From NCBI GenBank assembly GCA_963788655.1, contig CAWBHS010000078.1, forward strand, positions 73,583 to 137,582: 64,000 bases of DNA, in the 5' to 3' direction. The stretch comes from an uncultured Verrucomicrobiae bacterium. GTDB lineage: Bacteria; Verrucomicrobiota; Verrucomicrobiia; Limisphaerales; JAFGQR01. The notes beneath the pieces were generated by a model. That model was not told the origin of the DNA. It saw only the letters and a program-made list of their open reading frames with translations, and made no database searches. Shown here piece by piece: positions 1 through 8,475 of this stretch (within the stretch, counting starts at the first letter, position 1; every line of letters starts with the position of its first letter). The position numbers and the translations under genes are program-made.

Positions 1-879
1 GTGCGTCTCGCCGCGGTGCGAGCCCTGTGCAATTGGCAAACCGCCGCGCCGCTCGATGATCTGGCCGCCGTGGCCGTGGAATCCAGCGAGGCGCAAGTCA
101 AAGCCCTGGCCTTGCGCGGCGTGGCCCGCATGGCGACCTTGGCTAAGGACCGTCCCGACGAAGCGGCATCGGCCATCAAGCGCGTTCTGCCGGTGGCGAA
201 CAACGTCAATGAGCGGAAAGCTTTGCTGGCGGCATTGGGCAGTGTCGCCAGTGTCATTGCCCTCGAAACCGGAGAGTCACAGTTGGCCCAACCGGAAACC
301 ACCAACGAAGCCGCCACCGCCATTCTGCAGGTGGCAGAAGTCATTTACCCATGGTATCGCGCTGAAGTGCAAAAAGCGGTCGGGCGTGTCAAAGCTGCCA
401 GCACGAGTCCGGTGATCCTTCAGCGGGCGGATGCGCTGGCGGCCAAACTAAAAGCTCCGGCCAACCTGGCTTTAGGTGGCATCGCAACTAGCCCCGACGA
501 CTTAGAAAAAGACGGCGATGCCAGCGGCGACCAGGCGGCAATTGATGGCGATCTCAAGACCTATTGGGACGAGGCGAACGGCCAGAAATTGTATCGCTTA
601 CGGGTGCAACTGCGGCGGCCTTCCACGGTGGGACGGTTGCGGATTGTTGGCTGGCAGCATCAGAGCTATGCGGCGCGGGATTTCGAGGTATTGTGCGACG
701 ACCAAGTGGTCAAGACCGTGAAGAACGCTCGCTATGAGCAGAACGTGCTGAACGTTGAATTTCCGTCAGTAAAGTGCTCCACCGTGGAATTGAAGATCAC
801 CGGTTACTACGGACAAAGTCCCGCCGTTCGTGAACTGGAGATTTATGGGCCGACCGCCAGCGGTTCCGCGGACAAATAG
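1..879 (+). CDS. HEAT-repeat protein with C-terminal discoidin/F5-8 type C domain (5' partial)
   Basis: Ala/Leu-rich helical repeats (VRLAAVRALCNW...ERKALLAALG) followed by ANLALGG...AIDGDLKTYW...VRELEIYG, a discoidin pattern. Runs off the window start. Confidence 0.7.
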   Translation: MRLAAVRALCNWQTAAPLDDLAAVAVESSEAQVKALALRGVARMATLAKDRPDEAASAIKRVLPVANNVNERKALLAALGSVASVIALETGESQLAQPETTNEAATAILQVAEVIYPWYRAEVQKAVGRVKAASTSPVILQRADALAAKLKAPANLALGGIATSPDDLEKDGDASGDQAAIDGDLKTYWDEANGQKLYRLRVQLRRPSTVGRLRIVGWQHQSYAARDFEVLCDDQVVKTVKNARYEQNVLNVEFPSVKCSTVELKITGYYGQSPAVRELEIYGPTASGSADK

Positions 880-2710: not shown

Positions 2711-3077
2711 TCAACCGTGGTTACGCCCCTTTGGCTTTGGCTTCTTCGGCCTTGGCCGCGTCGCTGGCGTTTCCAACCTTGGCGGCGAGCTGATCCAAAT
2801 CTCGATTGATTGCCCCCAACTGGCCTTGCATGGTCGCGACGAGTTCAACCTTTTGCGCACAGGCACAGTGCTGCATTGCTTGCGCGGCCTCTTTGGCTTC
2901 CTGTGTGACCTCGTCGAACTGCGGCACCGTGGCTTCTCCGGTTTTGGTCGCCGAAAATTGCGCCGCCGGTTTACCGCCCACCGCGAAGGCGGTGACGGCT
3001 CGGCCTGACTCCGTTCCAACTGCCAGCAAGATGCCGGCAGCACGTTCCCCTGTCCTGCCGGGCAATTGGGTGGTCAC
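2711..3077 (-). pseudogene. Degenerate coiled-coil protein remnant next to the IS left end
   Basis: Amphipathic heptads (EAKEAAQAMQ...QLGAINRDLDQLAAKV) with no clean start and an abrupt end. Confidence 0.35.
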
Positions 3078-3085
3078 TTCCTATA

Positions 3086-3171
3086 GCGCTCAGAAAAATG
3101 GAGTCGGGTCTGGTGAGATAAGTGGAGCCACCGGCTGAGCGGCAGCGAGCCGAGTTCTTCTTTCCAAGGAG
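3086..3171 (+). repeat. Left inverted repeat of the IS21-like element
   Basis: GCGCTCAGAAAAATGGAGTCGGG...TTTCCAAGGAG is the reverse complement of 7977-8062 at 83/86 positions. It contains two AGAWAARTGGAGYC sub-repeats 24 bp apart (3092, 3116). Confidence 0.92.
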
Positions 3172-3381
3172 GCGATCGGGGCTTGGCTGCCCGGTTCCGG
3201 TGCTCCAACAAAAATCCCCGTCCCACCTTCTCGACACACCCGTGCCGATCCGGTAGGACGAGGACATTCATAATAGCGTTAGCATCCTAAGCGAGAGTTT
3301 CGCTTTTTTGCAATAACGATCGCGGAGCATTTTGAGTTTACTCCAGACTGGTATCGCGGGGCGAAAATCCGGCGGCTGATC

Positions 3382-3903
3382 TTGGATTACTACCAAGTCC
3401 TGCGATCGATATTGCGAAGGCAGCCTCATCGGCGACGGTGCCTGACCCGCTGTCGGCACTGCCGCATCTTTTTTCTCACCGATCCGCGCAATACCGGGCG
3501 CAAGGATATGCCCCGAGGCAAGCGCAAGGACTTGGCCTGTCCCTTGGGTTGCCGTGAAGCCCACCGGAAGCACCAGTCCACATCACGCAGTGTTGCCTAC
3601 TACCGGACAAAAGAAGGGCGAAGAAAGAAACGGGACCTGAACCAACGCCGCCCGGCGGCTTGCCGCCGCCCAGCGCCCGCGCCGCCGCCCAACGCCCCGA
3701 ACGCACCGGCCCAGGCCGCCCGCGCACCGTGGCCGGAGCCGGTGGTGGAGCATGTCCGGAGGGTCGTCAGCTGGATCGAACACCGGCACATCCGCCGAGC
3801 GGAGATCCTGCAGGTGCTGGCGAAAGTTTTGAGACAACAGGGCATAGGCCGGCGACGCCGGATCGATCACACTGTGGCCTGGCTCAATGAACATCCGCCT
3901 TAA
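3382..3903 (+). CDS. Basic Cys-rich (putative zinc-ribbon) protein in the IS21-like element
   Basis: CLTRCRHCRIFF and CPLGC motifs, Arg/Lys-rich. The frame stays open upstream to about 3283, so the start is uncertain. Confidence 0.6.
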   Translation: MDYYQVLRSILRRQPHRRRCLTRCRHCRIFFLTDPRNTGRKDMPRGKRKDLACPLGCREAHRKHQSTSRSVAYYRTKEGRRKKRDLNQRRPAACRRPAPAPPPNAPNAPAQAARAPWPEPVVEHVRRVVSWIEHRHIRRAEILQVLAKVLRQQGIGRRRRIDHTVAWLNEHPP

Positions 3904-3914
3904 AGACATCCGGT

Positions 3915-4994
3915 ATGGCGCACGAGGTTGAACTGTCCGACTTGGACCTGCGGTACGAGGACTATCGCCTCAAACAGGCGGCGGTTGAAGCTCGGCTATT
4001 GACCTCGATTGCCCAACGCGGCATCGAGGAACCCCTGGAAGGCGTCGAGGTCGACCAAACCCAGGTTCTGCTCAATGGATTCAAGCGGTATCGCTGTGCC
4101 CGCAAGCTGCGCCTGAACACCGTGCCGTATACCTCCCTCGGCGCCGACGAGGTGAGCGGCATTCTGGGTTTGTTGCGCACGGCCAAGAACAAAAGCCTGA
4201 ACATTCTGGAGCAAGCCCGCTTCATCGACGAACTCAAAAACGTGCGTCACCTGAGTGTGGCGGAGATCGCCACGGAACTCTCGGTCAGCAAAGCCTGGGT
4301 CAGTATGCGCCTGGGATTACTGGGAGAGATGAGCCCCAAGGTACGTCAGCAGCTCTTCAGCGGTGCGTTTCCGGTTTATCCCTACATGTACCTTCTGCGT
4401 CAGTTCATGCGTATGAACGGTGTCAAGAAGCAGGAGATCGAGCAGTTCGTCCTGGCCGTCAGCGGCAAAGATCTGAGCGTACGGGACATTACGCAATTAG
4501 CTCACGGCTGCTTTCGGGGACCCGCGTCCTTCCGCGAAGAGATTCTCAAGGGCAACGTGGCCCTGCCGTTGCGACAGATGAACCAGGTTCCTCTCGATCC
4601 GGAAGGATGCAACGAGTTCGAGCGGGTTTTGCTGAGCGACCTGGAAGTTCTCCAGAAGTACATGCAGCGCGTCATGGGCAAGAGCCAGGACCAACGCCTC
4701 CAGAGCCGGGTGTTCCATTCCCAGTCGCATCTTTTAACCGGAGGGATTTTGAGCCGCGGCACGGCCTTCCTCCAAACCTTGAGACAACTCCATGATCGAA
4801 ACGGACAAGCGCAAGGCGGTTTACCTACTCCACCAGGAAGGCATGAGCCAGCGGGAGATCGCCCGCCGGCTGGGCCTGGGCCGCAACACGGTGCGACGGA
4901 TCATCCAGCAGCAGGGCCAGGTGGTGCACGCCATCCGCAAGGACAAGCAAACGATCGACCCGGATCTGCTCCGGCGCCTGCACCTGGAGTGTGA
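3915..4994 (+). CDS. ParB/Srx N-terminal domain plus HTH protein
   Basis: LLTSIAQRGIEEPL and LLNGFKRYRCA (ParB box I/II-like), followed by HTH LSVAEIATELSVSKAWVSMRL. The 3' end overlaps istA. Confidence 0.85.
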   Translation: MAHEVELSDLDLRYEDYRLKQAAVEARLLTSIAQRGIEEPLEGVEVDQTQVLLNGFKRYRCARKLRLNTVPYTSLGADEVSGILGLLRTAKNKSLNILEQARFIDELKNVRHLSVAEIATELSVSKAWVSMRLGLLGEMSPKVRQQLFSGAFPVYPYMYLLRQFMRMNGVKKQEIEQFVLAVSGKDLSVRDITQLAHGCFRGPASFREEILKGNVALPLRQMNQVPLDPEGCNEFERVLLSDLEVLQKYMQRVMGKSQDQRLQSRVFHSQSHLLTGGILSRGTAFLQTLRQLHDRNGQAQGGLPTPPGRHEPAGDRPPAGPGPQHGATDHPAAGPGGARHPQGQANDRPGSAPAPAPGV

Positions 4995-6313
4995 GGGCCG
5001 CGTTCAACGCATGCACGAGAAGCTGGTGGAGGAGGAAGGGCTCGCCGTGAAGTATTCCACGCTGACCCGCCGGGTGCGGGAGTTGGGCTTGGGCGAACCG
5101 CCCCAGGTCCGTTGCCATCGCGTGCCCGATGAACCGGGCTTGGAGATGCAGCATGACACCAGCGTTTATCGCGTCGAGCTGGGCGCGCAACGCGTCAAGC
5201 TCGTCGCCAGTCTGATCTACCTGCGCTACTCCAAACGACGCTACTTGAAGTTCTACCGCCACTTCGACCGCTTCCACATGAAGTGCTTCTTGCATGAAGC
5301 CTTGATGTGGTGGGGCTACGCGGCTCGCCAGTGCATCATCGACAACACCAACCTGGCGCGACTGCGAGGCACCGGCCGCAACGCGGTCATGGTCCCGGAG
5401 ATGGCGGTCTTCGGTAAGCAGTACCGGCTTCGAGTTCTGCTGCCACGAGCTCGGGCACAGTAATCGAAAGGCGGGGGAAGAGCGCAGCTTTTGGACGGTG
5501 GAAACCAACTTCCTGCCTGGCCGCAGCTTTGCGAGCTTGGAGGACCTCAACCAGCAGGCCTTCGCCTGGTCGACCGAGCGCATGGAGCACCGCCCCCAAA
5601 CCAAGGCGGCCATCATTCCCGCCAAAGCCTTCGAGCATGAACGCACCTTTCTGCTCCCGCTGGCGCCCCATTTGCCACCGCCCTACAAGGTCCTGCAACG
5701 GGGAACCGATGAATACGGCTACCTCAGCTTCGACGCCAATTACTATTGGGTGCCGGGCACCGATCGCGCTGACGTCACGGTGCTGCGCTACGCCGATCGG
5801 TTGAAAATCTACAAGCAACGGGAATGTCTGGCCGAATATGGGTTGCCGCCCGACGGGGTCCGCAATGAGCGGTTTAGCCCGGAGGGACTGCCGCCGCCCC
5901 CCCACCATCCCAAGAACCGCCGCCAGCCCACCCAGGAGGAGGAAAAGCGCCTGCGGGCTATCGGAGCACCGGTCAGCGCCTACCTGGATTGGGTCCTCCC
6001 CCGCAAAGGTCCGGGGCGCCATCGTTTTTTAAGAAGCCTGCTGGCGTTGAGCCGGAAAATGTCTCCGGAGTTATTCCGGCAAAGCGTCGAGCGCGCGGCC
6101 CAATTCCGGATCGAGGAGATCTCCACCCTCGAGCGCATCGCCTTCTTGTATCTGCAGCAAGGGACGGGCGTGCTGCCGGTGCCCCAAGTCGATGAGCAGT
6201 TCACGGAGCGCGAGGCCTACTTGGAAGGCTCGCTGACCGAAGCCCCTGATTTATCCATTTATCAAGATCCTCCCCAAGACGATCCACCCCCACCACGCTC
6301 TGGACATGAATGA
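4792..6313 (+). CDS. istA: IS21 family DDE transposase IstA (one +1 frameshift at ~5424)
   Basis: N-terminal HTH GMSQREIARRLGLGRNTVRR, MQHDT, IIDNT. Removing one C at 5424/5425 gives QYGFEFCCHELGHSNRKAGEERSFWTVETNF and joins ORFs 4792..5463 and 5498..6313. Confidence 0.88.
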
Positions 6314-7073
6314 CGAACTGACGCAACCACTAAAATATCTGCGCTTGAAAGGGCTGCTGGCCCACTGGGATGAGTATCTCCAGTTGGCGGCCCAAAAGAA
6401 CTTCTCCCACGATCACCTCCTCCGGCACGTGGTGCAGGAAGAATACCGGACCAAGCGGGAGAACGCCCGCCAGTTCCGCCTCCGCAAGGCCGCCATCCCC
6501 GAACCGCTGGTCATCGAAACCTACCCCTTCGCCCGGCAGCCCAAACTGAACAAGAAGAAACTGATGGCGCTGTATGACTCCCTGAACTTCATGCGGAACC
6601 ACCAGAACATCCTCTGGCTGGGCCGCACCGGGTGCGGCAAGACCGGATTGGCCACCAGCTTTTTGATCCACGCCATCAATCACGGCTACAACGGACGCTT
6701 CGTCTCCTTCGCTGAACTCATCACCGAGCTGTTCCAATCGGTCGCCGACCACTCCGAACGCAAAGTCATGCGCAAATACCTGGCGTGGGATCCCTTGTTG
6801 GTCGACGAGATCGGCTACATTCCCATCGAACCCGTCCAAGCGGGGCTCTTTTTCGATCTGATGCAGCGGCGGCACAAGAAAAAGACCACTCTCATCACCT
6901 CCAATCTGGGCTTCAGCGACTGGGGTTCCTTTCTCAAAAACGACCACCTCACCGCCGCGCTCATCGACCGCCTGACCGAAACCAGCCATGTCTTCAACAT
7001 GAGGCAATGCAACGGCATCCGTGACCGCCTCAGTTCGGACGATGAACTTCCCGCCGATCCGCCACAGGGCTGA
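6306..7073 (+). CDS. istB: IS21 helper ATPase IstB
   Basis: Walker A GRTGCGKT, Walker B LLVDEIGY, LITSN, ALIDRL. Confidence 0.95.
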   Translation: MNDELTQPLKYLRLKGLLAHWDEYLQLAAQKNFSHDHLLRHVVQEEYRTKRENARQFRLRKAAIPEPLVIETYPFARQPKLNKKKLMALYDSLNFMRNHQNILWLGRTGCGKTGLATSFLIHAINHGYNGRFVSFAELITELFQSVADHSERKVMRKYLAWDPLLVDEIGYIPIEPVQAGLFFDLMQRRHKKKTTLITSNLGFSDWGSFLKNDHLTAALIDRLTETSHVFNMRQCNGIRDRLSSDDELPADPPQG

Positions 7074-7911
7074 CCCACTGCGGGCCATCCCGTTGACCGC
7101 GGTGCTGCGGGCCTGGGGTGCTCAACCCGATGCCTCGGACCAGCGCAAGTGGCACACGCCTCAGGGTGTCCTTTCGGTCAATGGCGCCAAATTCATCAAC
7201 TGGAGCCGCGGCGGGGGCGGCGGCGGCGCCATCGATCTGGTCATCCATTTGAACCGTTGCGGCTTCCGGCAAGCCCTGGACTGGCTGGCCGGCCATTTCC
7301 CCTCACCCCCAGCTCAGACCGACCTGGGCTTGGCCCAACCCCAGTTCCAACTGCCCGTCCCGGATCCCGCCCAACTCGCCCGCGTCCGCCACTATTTGCT
7401 CCAGCAGCGCCGGCTGCTACCCGACCTCATTGACCCGCTCATTCAAGCCGGTTCCCTTTACGCCGATCACCGAGCCAATGCCGTCTTCCTACTGCAGGGA
7501 GCTAACGACACTCCGGTCGGCGCCGAACTCCGGGGAACGACGGCCCAGTCCTGGCGGGGCATGGCTCCCGGATCCAAAAAGGATTGGGGCTTCTTCTCTA
7601 TCCCTCGGGTCCCGTTTCCTCCCCAAGCCAATACGGGGCCAGGCGGCATCCTGCTGTGTGAATCGGCCATCGACGCCCTCAGCGGCCGCATCCTTCATCC
7701 GCAACTGGCGTGCGTCTCGACCGCGGGTGCTCGGCCCAATCCCCGCTGGCTTGGCCCGCTCCTGGCACAAAGTCGCACCGTCTATTGCGGCTTCGACACC
7801 GACACGACCGGTCAGACCATGGCCCAGGCCATGATCGCCCTGCATCCGGCGGTCCAGCGCTTGGCGCCGTCGGACCACGATTGGAACGACGTTCTCGGTT
7901 TGCAGCCGTAG
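7021..7911 (+). CDS. Toprim (primase-like, DUF3991-type) protein
   Basis: GGGAIDLVIHL...FRQALDWL (resembles the primase Zn-finger C-half), Toprim motifs LLCESAIDALS and GFDTDTTG, terminal DWND. Start may be the ATG at 7042. Confidence 0.8.
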   Translation: MTASVRTMNFPPIRHRADPLRAIPLTAVLRAWGAQPDASDQRKWHTPQGVLSVNGAKFINWSRGGGGGGAIDLVIHLNRCGFRQALDWLAGHFPSPPAQTDLGLAQPQFQLPVPDPAQLARVRHYLLQQRRLLPDLIDPLIQAGSLYADHRANAVFLLQGANDTPVGAELRGTTAQSWRGMAPGSKKDWGFFSIPRVPFPPQANTGPGGILLCESAIDALSGRILHPQLACVSTAGARPNPRWLGPLLAQSRTVYCGFDTDTTGQTMAQAMIALHPAVQRLAPSDHDWNDVLGLQP

Positions 7912-7976
7912 CCCTCGCCGCTTCCGCTTCCTCCTTCGCTCCACTACTCGGAAACTGTTCTACTCGGAAAGCATGG

Positions 7977-8062
7977 CTCCTTGGAAAGAAGAACTCGGCT
8001 CGCTGCCGCTCAGCCGGTGGCTCCACTTATCTCACCAGACCCGGCTCCATTTTGCTAAGCGC
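7977..8062 (-). repeat. Right inverted repeat of the IS21-like element
   Basis: Reverse complement of 3086-3171. Confidence 0.92.
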
Positions 8063-8092
8063 CGTCGAACCCCGCCGGATGAGCATGATGCC

Positions 8093-8188
8093 GCCGAACA
8101 AGATCACTGGACCGAACGCGGGCCGGCCACGGCGGTTGGCAATTCGGATGTCACTGGCCGCCCGCGTCGGTCAGTTCTGACGTTCACC
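8093..8188 (+). other. Integron attC-like recombination site (orphan)
   Basis: GCCGAAC ... GTTCACC core boxes. ACTGGACCGAACGCGGG pairs with CCCGCGTCGGTCAGT leaving two extrahelical bases. Inner CGGCCA/TGGCCG stem. Confidence 0.75.
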
Positions 8189-8190
8189 AG

Positions 8191-8475
8191 TCAAGCGTTG
8201 GTGCGGGTGTCGGTGATGAGGCCGCAGATGACGGCGGCGACGGTAATCATGAGTTCGCAGTCGTTGTAGTGGTCGTCGCGGGCGATCTGTTTCCAGATGT
8301 ATTTGAAGCGGCCACGGGGGGCGGTGACTTCTTCGCGGCGGACGGCGGAGAGTTGTTGGAGGTAGTCGCGGGTGACGGCCTGGGGGATGGTCCATTCGCC
8401 GACGAGGCCGGTGGTAAAGTTGGCCATCAGGTCGCGCGTGGCGGGGTTGGCCCAGTTGCACGAATCCCAGGGCAT
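8191..8475 (-). pseudogene. C-terminal fragment of a phage terminase large subunit (GpA-like endonuclease end)
   Basis: DYLQQLSAVRR...WKQIARDDHYNDCELM resembles the GpA QLTAE...W-K-R-RNEALDC C-terminus. No ATPase domain upstream. Confidence 0.55.

Follow-up and report, generated by a model that had tools for sequence, protein, structure and literature searches.

IS21 is a structural model of the control of a DDE transposase by an AAA+ protein and has been treated as a two-gene system. Canonical IS21 elements are about 2-2.6 kb long, carry the terminal dinucleotides TG...CA and generate target-site duplications of 4-8 bp. In the part of the source that sets out the organisation of the prototype, only IstA and IstB are given as its proteins (PMC10122671). 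Here, a longer relative of IS21 is described from a 64,000-nt stretch of contig CAWBHS010000078.1, from an uncultured Verrucomicrobiae bacterium; this whole stretch is referred to below as the window. The feature in question is one copy, likely disabled, of a widespread ~5-kb family of IS21-like transposons in which istA and istB are accompanied by genes for a Cys-rich protein, a ParB-like protein and a primase-like protein. Its layout in the window is as follows.

3081..8067, plus strand: whole transposon, ~4987 bp, from the inverted repeat and the conserved family termini (outer 5 nt on each side placed by analogy with relatives)
3086..3171, plus strand: left terminal inverted repeat, with two ~20-nt direct repeats (presumed IstA sites) and one inner TTCCAAGGAG motif at 3162-3171
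3215..3264, plus strand: conserved leader stem-loop, from covariation in 12 loci
3382..3903, plus strand: gene 1, Cys-rich protein, 173 aa, from the open reading frame (ORF) call and an alignment of relatives
3915..4994, plus strand: gene 2, ParB/Noc/KorB-like protein with a ParB N-domain, a helix-turn-helix (HTH) and a helical C-domain, from profile and fold matches
4792..6313, plus strand: gene 3, istA, DDE transposase, broken by a 1-nt insertion into ORFs 4792-5463 and 5498-6313
6306..7073, plus strand: gene 4, istB, AAA+ helper ATPase (PF01695, 1e-50), with an 8-nt overlap with istA
7042..7911 (ORF from 7021), plus strand: gene 5, DnaG/T7-gp4-type primase-like protein, 289 aa, from its DUF3991 and Toprim_2 domains and its predicted fold
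7944..7986, minus strand: three subterminal TTCC(A/G)AG(G/T)AG copies (at 7944, 7960 and 7977), from a motif count
7977..8062, minus strand: right terminal inverted repeat, from a repeat search

A repeat search of the window gave arms of 86 nt that are 97% complementary and lie 4805 nt apart. Together with the ORFs, this bears out the initial annotation, in which 86-nt inverted repeats were placed around five co-oriented genes for Cys-rich, ParB-like, IstA, IstB and Toprim proteins. The inverted repeat is far beyond chance because it matches the conserved termini of the family. By analogy with relatives, the true termini would lie 5 nt outside the repeat, at about 3081 and 8067. No target-site duplication was found at the window copy, which is flanked by gtcacttc and aaccccgc.

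The two core proteins identify the family as bona fide IS21-related transposons. An intact IstA homologue matched NF033546 at 1e-39, with model positions 3-294 of 294 covered and a score of 136.8 bits (cut-off 160). When solved structures were searched with a profile, IstA residues 1-334 aligned with the IS5376 IstA structures at 4.7e-23, and neither TnsB nor MuA was returned at E<=0.01. Residues D122, D184 and E232 are invariant, and the DDE triad is thus retained. IstB is a typical helper of the IS21 type, with a match to NF038214 at 3.1e-56 (190.7 bits; cut-off 200). The likeness to IS21 and IS5376 extends over the HTH, catalytic and beta-barrel parts of IstA and includes the istA/istB overlap. 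Short target duplications are a further trait in common with IS21, as are two tandem repeats at each end, which correspond to L1/L2 and R1/R2 in the description of the IS21 ends in PMC10122671. The family differs from the two-gene prototype in having five genes over ~5 kb and extra asymmetric subterminal repeats at its ends. The canonical IstAs listed are no more than 32% identical to family IstA, which at ~500 aa therefore has a C-terminal extension, and both curated NCBIfam models score below their cut-offs for the family proteins.

Gene 5 encodes a protein that is predicted to have the full DnaG/T7-gp4-type primase fold, with a zinc-binding domain devoid of Cys, and for which primer synthesis is the predicted activity. 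The AlphaFold model (predicted local distance difference test score, pLDDT, of 91) returned Aquifex primase (8e-9), Escherichia coli DnaG cores and the T7 gp4 primase as its top Foldseek matches. Residues 97-289 aligned with the T7 gp4 primase fragment 1nui with a Z score of 15.5 (root mean square deviation 3.3, 176 residues) and with DnaG RNA-polymerase domains at Z 11-13.4. Residues 3-88 aligned with the DnaG zinc-binding domain 1d0q at Z 8.1 over 84 residues. Other Toprim enzymes (topoisomerases, RNase M5 and RecR) gave Z<=6.7, mostly over the Toprim part, and the label 'Toprim/primase-like' in the initial annotation is thus upheld by the fold. Residues E207, D211, D252, D254 and D280 are invariant in 41 sequences and D283 is invariant in 14; the N-subdomain residues V159, G160, A161, E162, R164 and G165 are likewise invariant. 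Cys is absent from the conserved residues of the zinc-binding-domain part, in which H38 is near-invariant. Sequence similarity to solved primases was undetectable, and a profile search gave only small Toprim proteins at E 0.6-0.8.

The closest relatives of this protein outside the family are found on plasmids, with 33-35% identity over 96-99% of the protein. They include fusions to MobV relaxases in cyanobacteria and Paracoccus and 'DUF3991 and TOPRIM' proteins of small Pseudomonas and Xanthomonas plasmids. Among 137 plasmid records with a primase relative, 73 are classed as mobilisable and 39 as conjugative.

Homologues of the primase-like protein are numerous (4968 at E<=1e-3 among 8000 scored candidates), and many lie on ~5-kb contigs. 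When one genome per species was scanned, 416 loci encoding a primase relative were obtained, and the best 80 of these were kept for comparison. Gene content was established with family profiles on six-frame ORFs, loci with at least 3900 nt upstream of the primase gene being taken as informative (n = 40). All five genes were detected in 37 of the 40, and their order was never permuted. The three incomplete loci comprise L075 (a deletion with an IstA-primase fusion), L082 (Cys gene undetected) and L084 (5'-truncated). Apparent violations of the order are explained by fusions in L047 and L075 and by overlapping open frames at a contig end in L090. The relatives are 4.8-5.1 kb long and are bounded by the family termini. 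Complete copies occur in at least eight named phyla (Verrucomicrobiota, Acidobacteriota, Planctomycetota, Pseudomonadota, Thermodesulfobacteriota, Chloroflexota and two candidate phyla), these labels being taken from bins, in which mis-binning is possible. A 1002-aa 'primase' ORF in L084 showed no further domains and may be an artefact. The genome of the window itself (G000) also carries relatives that are 66-68% identical at the nucleotide level and equal in gene order, at the ends of three other contigs (L009-L011: C60 end, C65 start and C66 start). These copies constitute a second subfamily in that genome, and each has its own istA frameshifts.

Movement of the five-gene unit as a whole, with 6-8 bp target duplications, was evident from near-identical copies. 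One Acidobacteriaceae bin holds three copies (L054-L056) that are 99.88-99.98% identical over 4954-4955 nt within unrelated flanks; the limits of the identical stretch coincide exactly with the family termini, and 6-7 nt are repeated in the flanks. A fourth copy in this bin runs off the end of its contig, and pairs of copies with 99.1-99.3% identity occur in two other genomes. Target duplications were found elsewhere as well, of 8 bp in L014 and of 7-9 bp in L033, L037, L039, L047 and L052. Many 5-kb metagenome contigs lack a duplication, as is expected if flanks of different copies were joined by the assembler.

The proteins of the element have largely diverged together. In 42 non-redundant loci where none of the four large proteins is disrupted, the pairwise distances for ParB, IstA and IstB correlated with r 0.94-0.96, and those for the primase with r 0.53-0.58. 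The low primase values are due to three deeply divergent loci (L040, L067 and L085). When these were set aside, all six protein pairs gave Mantel r values of 0.71-0.84 in the 39 main-clade loci. Both sets of correlations are uncorrected for shared ancestry. The distance matrices of the four large proteins are thus largely congruent. Compared with the main clade, the three divergent loci show identities of 15-28% for ParB, 27-33% for IstA, 27-41% for IstB and 42-73% for the primase. They keep the same five gene types, including the first gene with its four-Cys (Cys4) module, and two old lineages each retain a primase. As judged from these sequence comparisons, the three extra genes are part of the element and not passengers.

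The distribution outside the main clade was surveyed through IstA. Of 401 genomes from the phylum of the window, 37 gave an IstA match at E<=1e-10, and only two exceeded 32% identity: that of the window itself (58-67%) and G299 (34%). In the G299 element (L098, G299:C342), the Cys, ParB, IstA and IstB genes are present, and the primase is replaced at the fifth position by a 142-aa ORF (397-825, minus strand) with only a sub-threshold HTH_36 match (E 0.0088). A ParB or primase match was absent from all 11 canonical IS21 loci examined, which were taken from among the best hits; seven of these loci have several kb of flank. Two elements of canonical type carry a homologue of the N-terminal Cys4 module directly upstream of istA (L105, 5878-6477; L107, 2772-3563, minus strand), with ParB and primase absent. 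Their IstAs are 24-26% identical to that of the family, and the Cys4 module gave pairwise identities of 41% (E 6e-10) and 28% (1e-6). Three-gene forms therefore occur, and of the accessory genes that for the Cys4 protein is shared most widely.

Among 72,556 plasmids, a search with IstA returned 643 matching records, all below 60% identity. Only pHRM2a of Desulforapulum autotrophicum covered at least 80% of IstA (52.9% identity); the other listed plasmid matches are no more than 28% identical at ~70% coverage. The pHRM2a copy (L092, NC_012109.1, 3561-7781) carries the neighbour genes and is the only copy found in a cultured organism. Close IstA homologues found in this way do come with these neighbours. 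Its genes are annotated, in order, as hypothetical (Cys), 'ParB', 'helix-turn-helix protein' (IstA), 'ATP-binding protein' (IstB) and 'CHC2 zinc finger'; the primase gene is truncated to 179 aa, and RefSeq gives the copy no IS21 name. In its remarks on the plasmid, the genome paper refers to three Par-family maintenance proteins, with the genes unnamed (PMC2702500). A search of 2.9 million viral contigs gave 30 pattern matches, none of which was a relative. Full-text literature searches, which did not extend to ISfinder or TnCentral, yielded no published account or catalogued description in which ParB or a primase forms part of an IS21-type element. The five-gene family is thus widespread and apparently undescribed.

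For the ParB-like protein, matches of the window sequence to the Pfam families HTH_ParB and KorB were weak, and Noc/ParB was matched at 4.7e-7. The family profile matched the Spo0J/ParB structure 6sdk at 6.4e-17 over positions 9-197, in agreement with the 'ParB-like' label of the initial annotation. The predicted fold (pLDDT 89.9) matched Noc, ParB and KorB in Foldseek at about 1e-7. The CTP-binding motifs of ParB proteins are known as box II (GxxRxxA) and box III (ENLQR). A box II-like G-F-K-R-x-R-x-A is present in the family, with G55 and R58 invariant and F56, K57, R60 and A62 near-invariant, and no conservation is seen in the segment that aligns with ENLQRE. At E<=1e-30, 697 representatives of clusters formed at 50% identity belong to the family, which tblastn located on only one of the 72,556 plasmids. 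The Cys-rich protein has a CxxC...CPxGC arrangement of four invariant or near-invariant Cys residues, a basic region, a variable Pro-rich linker and a conserved C-terminal domain, a pattern that appears zinc-finger-like. No Pfam or NCBIfam family was matched by this protein; the best hit among solved structures had E 0.18, and its Atlas neighbours share no common Pfam family.

The family termini begin with CTATAG/CG..., followed by two ~20-nt direct repeats of a GCTCAGATAAATTGACC-like site. Most relatives have CTATAG.../CG... ends, with a lack of symmetry in the outermost 5-8 nt. A second motif, TTCC(A/G)AG(G/T)AG, has one copy at the inner boundary of the left repeat, three within the right end and one in istA (6217-6226). 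These five matches are the only ones in the window, all within the element, compared with 0.35 expected, and the right ends of relatives carry 1-5 copies. No conserved palindrome was found in the family ends, the repeats there being direct. A regular-expression search of 84 loci for end-to-end junctions gave chance-like matches only, and a candidate in L049 was recognised on inspection as a normal right end. When 241 million metagenome records were scanned for exact matches to two consensus termini placed end to end, 5 stretches were returned, four of which were unrelated palindromes. At the start of one contig (L097; JABUBL010031101.1, 1-60), 12 nt of an inverted terminus are followed by AC and a full left-end repeat. 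This arrangement resembles an IS21-type abutted junction, and none of the genes of the element follows it.

Upstream of gene 1, the leader stem-loop at 3215-3264 has 10 pairs in a 12-locus alignment, with 90% of cells paired and compensatory changes at 7 pairs. None of 500 shuffles reached its score, and slid controls were 31-37% paired. Downstream of the stem-loop lie a hairpin with a T-run at about 3299-3320 and a conserved TTGCAA box. Folded as a single sequence, the leader was no better than its shuffles (z -0.92); support for the stem comes from covariation alone. Rfam gave 0 matches at E<=1 over 3000-8150, and a scan of 3000-3450 for a sigma-70 promoter and a terminator found neither. 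The stem may provide insulation from outside transcription, act as an element of the 5' untranslated region or form a DNA hairpin for the primase.

Reading of the DNA at 5400-5500 showed that the halves of the window istA are joined by a +1 shift, with one extra base at 5424. The initial annotation missed this 1-nt insertion, which splits the gene. Contigs from four public sequencing runs were aligned to the element; those covering 5424 (one each in X1, X3 and the RNA library X9) all lack the extra base, and the X1 piece shows 4 other differences in 542 nt. Since the base is missing from every covering contig, the frameshift is either private to the window copy or an assembly error, and is not programmed. 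IstA is a single ORF in 64 of the 70 loci in which this could be judged. Contigs of X9, a sediment metatranscriptome library, cover parts of the element within 3000-8150 (56 of 83 pieces at 90-95% identity). Relatives are thus present in the RNA library, which is no proof of transcription.

The gene junctions are tight throughout the family. The ParB stop and istA start overlap by 23 nt in 40 of 63 loci, stop-loss variants having overlaps of 89-95, 167 or 203 nt. The 203-nt form occurs in four of the 63, including the window, where the loss of the usual stop at about 4815 accounts for a ParB-like protein of 359 aa against ~299 aa in relatives. The istA/istB overlap is 8 nt in 52 of 72 loci, and that between istB and the primase gene is 4 nt in 29 loci. 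It had been argued that such overlaps mark the accessory genes as core machinery. Their standing as parts of the element is supported by the comparative evidence above; the overlap argument itself adds little, because the ~200-nt ParB/istA overlap is peculiar to a few copies. Two natural in-frame fusions were also observed: ParB-IstA as a single open frame (L047, 3834-6038) and IstA-primase after loss of istB (L075, 5780-7801).

The best explanation of the whole, to which about an even chance is assigned, is that the primase of the five-gene operon primes DNA synthesis coupled to transposition. IstA on the paired terminal repeats, together with IstB, would carry out IS21-type 3'-end cleavage and strand transfer. 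The primase of the element would lay RNA primers on single-stranded or forked DNA of the strand-transfer intermediate, such that the element could be copied, or gaps filled, without dependence on the host restart primosome. The ParB-like and Cys4 proteins would bind element DNA, the candidate sites being the asymmetric subterminal TTCCAAGTAG-type repeats and the leader, and by this binding they would regulate how the operon is expressed and/or govern the pairing of ends, the choice of target or immunity. Priming at strand transfer is favoured because the primase is complete, because its gene is the last coupled gene of the transposase operon and because the unit holds no replication initiator, helicase or ParA.

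A number of points weigh against this proposal, every step of which we infer. The nearest relatives of the primase outside the family are plasmid mobilisation proteins, which would fit transfer-related priming no less than transposition-related priming. The gene 5 protein differs from DnaG and T7 gp4 in that Cys zinc ligands are missing, as is any helicase or helicase-binding domain, and primase recruitment is not explained by any feature seen. Because a 142-aa ORF stands in its place in the G299 element, the primase is not indispensable in every lineage. Its identity in the divergent loci is far above that of IstA, from which it follows that the gene has been exchanged between lineages or is under much stronger constraint; to judge from these identities, the primase module is a cassette, albeit one under selection. 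The behaviour of the ParB-like protein as a CTP clamp is doubtful because box III is not conserved. The window copy itself is uninformative on activity, since its istA is frameshifted and it has no target duplication.

The plasmid ancestry of the primase and the conserved hairpin are the reasons why two other ideas, an episomal circle and a role in transfer, stay alive. In the former, the element would be a transposon-plasmid hybrid whose excised circle is replicated from a hairpin recognised by the primase and kept or partitioned by the ParB-like protein before reinsertion. The ParB fold of gene 2, the plasmid proteins closest to the primase, the many homologues on ~5-kb contigs and the covarying stem-loop near the left end, which could serve single-strand initiation, would all suit such a cycle. 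It is nevertheless considered unlikely, as the 5-kb contigs end at the terminal repeats and show no permutation, the ParB-like protein has lost box III and neither ParA nor a Rep initiator nor a helicase was found in the unit. A circular copy-out intermediate, partition of circles and ParB-guided targeting had been put forward in the initial annotation. No support was obtained for these suggestions: neither a ParA nor a Rep gene is in the unit, and the loci and the metagenome scan gave no convincing end-to-end junction. A module for transfer or establishment, in which the primase and the ParB-like protein act on single-stranded DNA arriving by conjugation or transformation and prime the complementary strand, would account for primase relatives that are MobV-fused or on mobilisable or conjugative plasmids, and for a family that spans many phyla. 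The genes are translationally coupled to istA and istB, however, no relaxase or recognisable transfer origin was found in the 5-kb unit, and relatives numbered 0 in 2.9 million viral contigs and one in 72,556 plasmids; this reading is regarded as quite improbable.

Of similarly low probability is a nuclease role for the Toprim protein, with 5'-end cutting of the TnsA type or flap processing giving full excision. In its favour, nucleases too can contain Toprim domains, the fold matches include RNase M5, OLD-type proteins, JetD and topoisomerases, and the zinc ligands are lost. The full primase architecture is kept, however, with Z 11-15.5 to primases over ~175-183 residues, whereas alignments to other Toprim enzymes span ~85-112 residues at Z<=6.7, and invariant residues lie outside Toprim. 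That the extra genes are host-beneficial or defence-related cargo with no role in mobility is hardly to be expected. Such a view could appeal to the need of canonical IS21 for IstA and IstB only, as stated in the section of PMC10122671 on the prototype, and to a primase module that is exchangeable and is replaced in one lineage. It is at odds with the fixed order, the overlapping junctions, the co-divergence and a layout that is maintained in 37 of 40 loci and at ~30% IstA identity, and also with a ParB-like family essentially confined to these elements (one of 72,556 plasmids).

The proposal of priming coupled to transposition can be carried further, as a tentative idea that is possible rather than probable. 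The family might represent a large, unrecognised class of 'self-priming' DDE transposons in which an IstA/IstB core has permanently taken up a plasmid-type primase, a ParB-derived clamp and a Cys4 adaptor. Synthesis would possibly start at the conserved leader hairpin as a single-strand initiation site, and the clamp and adaptor would read the asymmetric subterminal repeats for end identity, immunity or target choice. If this is true, replicative transposition would be independent of host restart primosomes, and spread across many phyla would thereby be possible. More generally, it appears that a widespread natural version of IS21 depends on three additional proteins, of which one is a primase. 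Such a system would give an experimental handle on the hand-over of strand-transfer intermediates to DNA synthesis and would add a role for ParB-type proteins outside partition. In chromosomes and bins, the ParB and primase genes of these elements are taken for plasmid or partition markers, as with the gene of pHRM2a annotated as 'chromosome partitioning protein ParB', next to which the transposase is unnamed.

With respect to the setting of the window copy, a tRNA-Phe gene lies at 2520-2595, 485 nt left of the element. To the right, at 8191-8475, is a fragment like the C-terminal end of a GpA-type terminase (PF20454, E 0.0017, below the cut-off). The element may occupy a decayed prophage or an island at a tRNA gene.

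Two of the accessory proteins can be set beside known systems. The gene 5 protein shares the folds of the zinc-binding and RNA-polymerase domains and the acidic Toprim residues with DnaG and T7 gp4, and the DUF3991 and Toprim_2 domains with the plasmid DUF3991/TOPRIM and MobV-Toprim proteins. Those plasmid proteins, the function of which is hardly studied, are often fused to a relaxase, whereas here the primase-like gene is the last of a transposon operon. The ParB-like protein has the N-terminal ParB/Srx domain and HTH of the ParB, Noc and KorB clamps; it differs from them in its C-terminal helical domain, and no gene for a ParA-like partner was found in the unit. As a transposon, the element is distinguished from Tn7, Tn5053 and Mu-type systems by a unit without TnsA, resolvase or phage functions and with no TniQ Pfam match, and to our knowledge neither a primase nor ParB is known in those systems. 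What the family has in common with them is a DDE/AAA+ core extended by element-encoded subunits for DNA binding and processing, together with unequal numbers of sites at the two ends.

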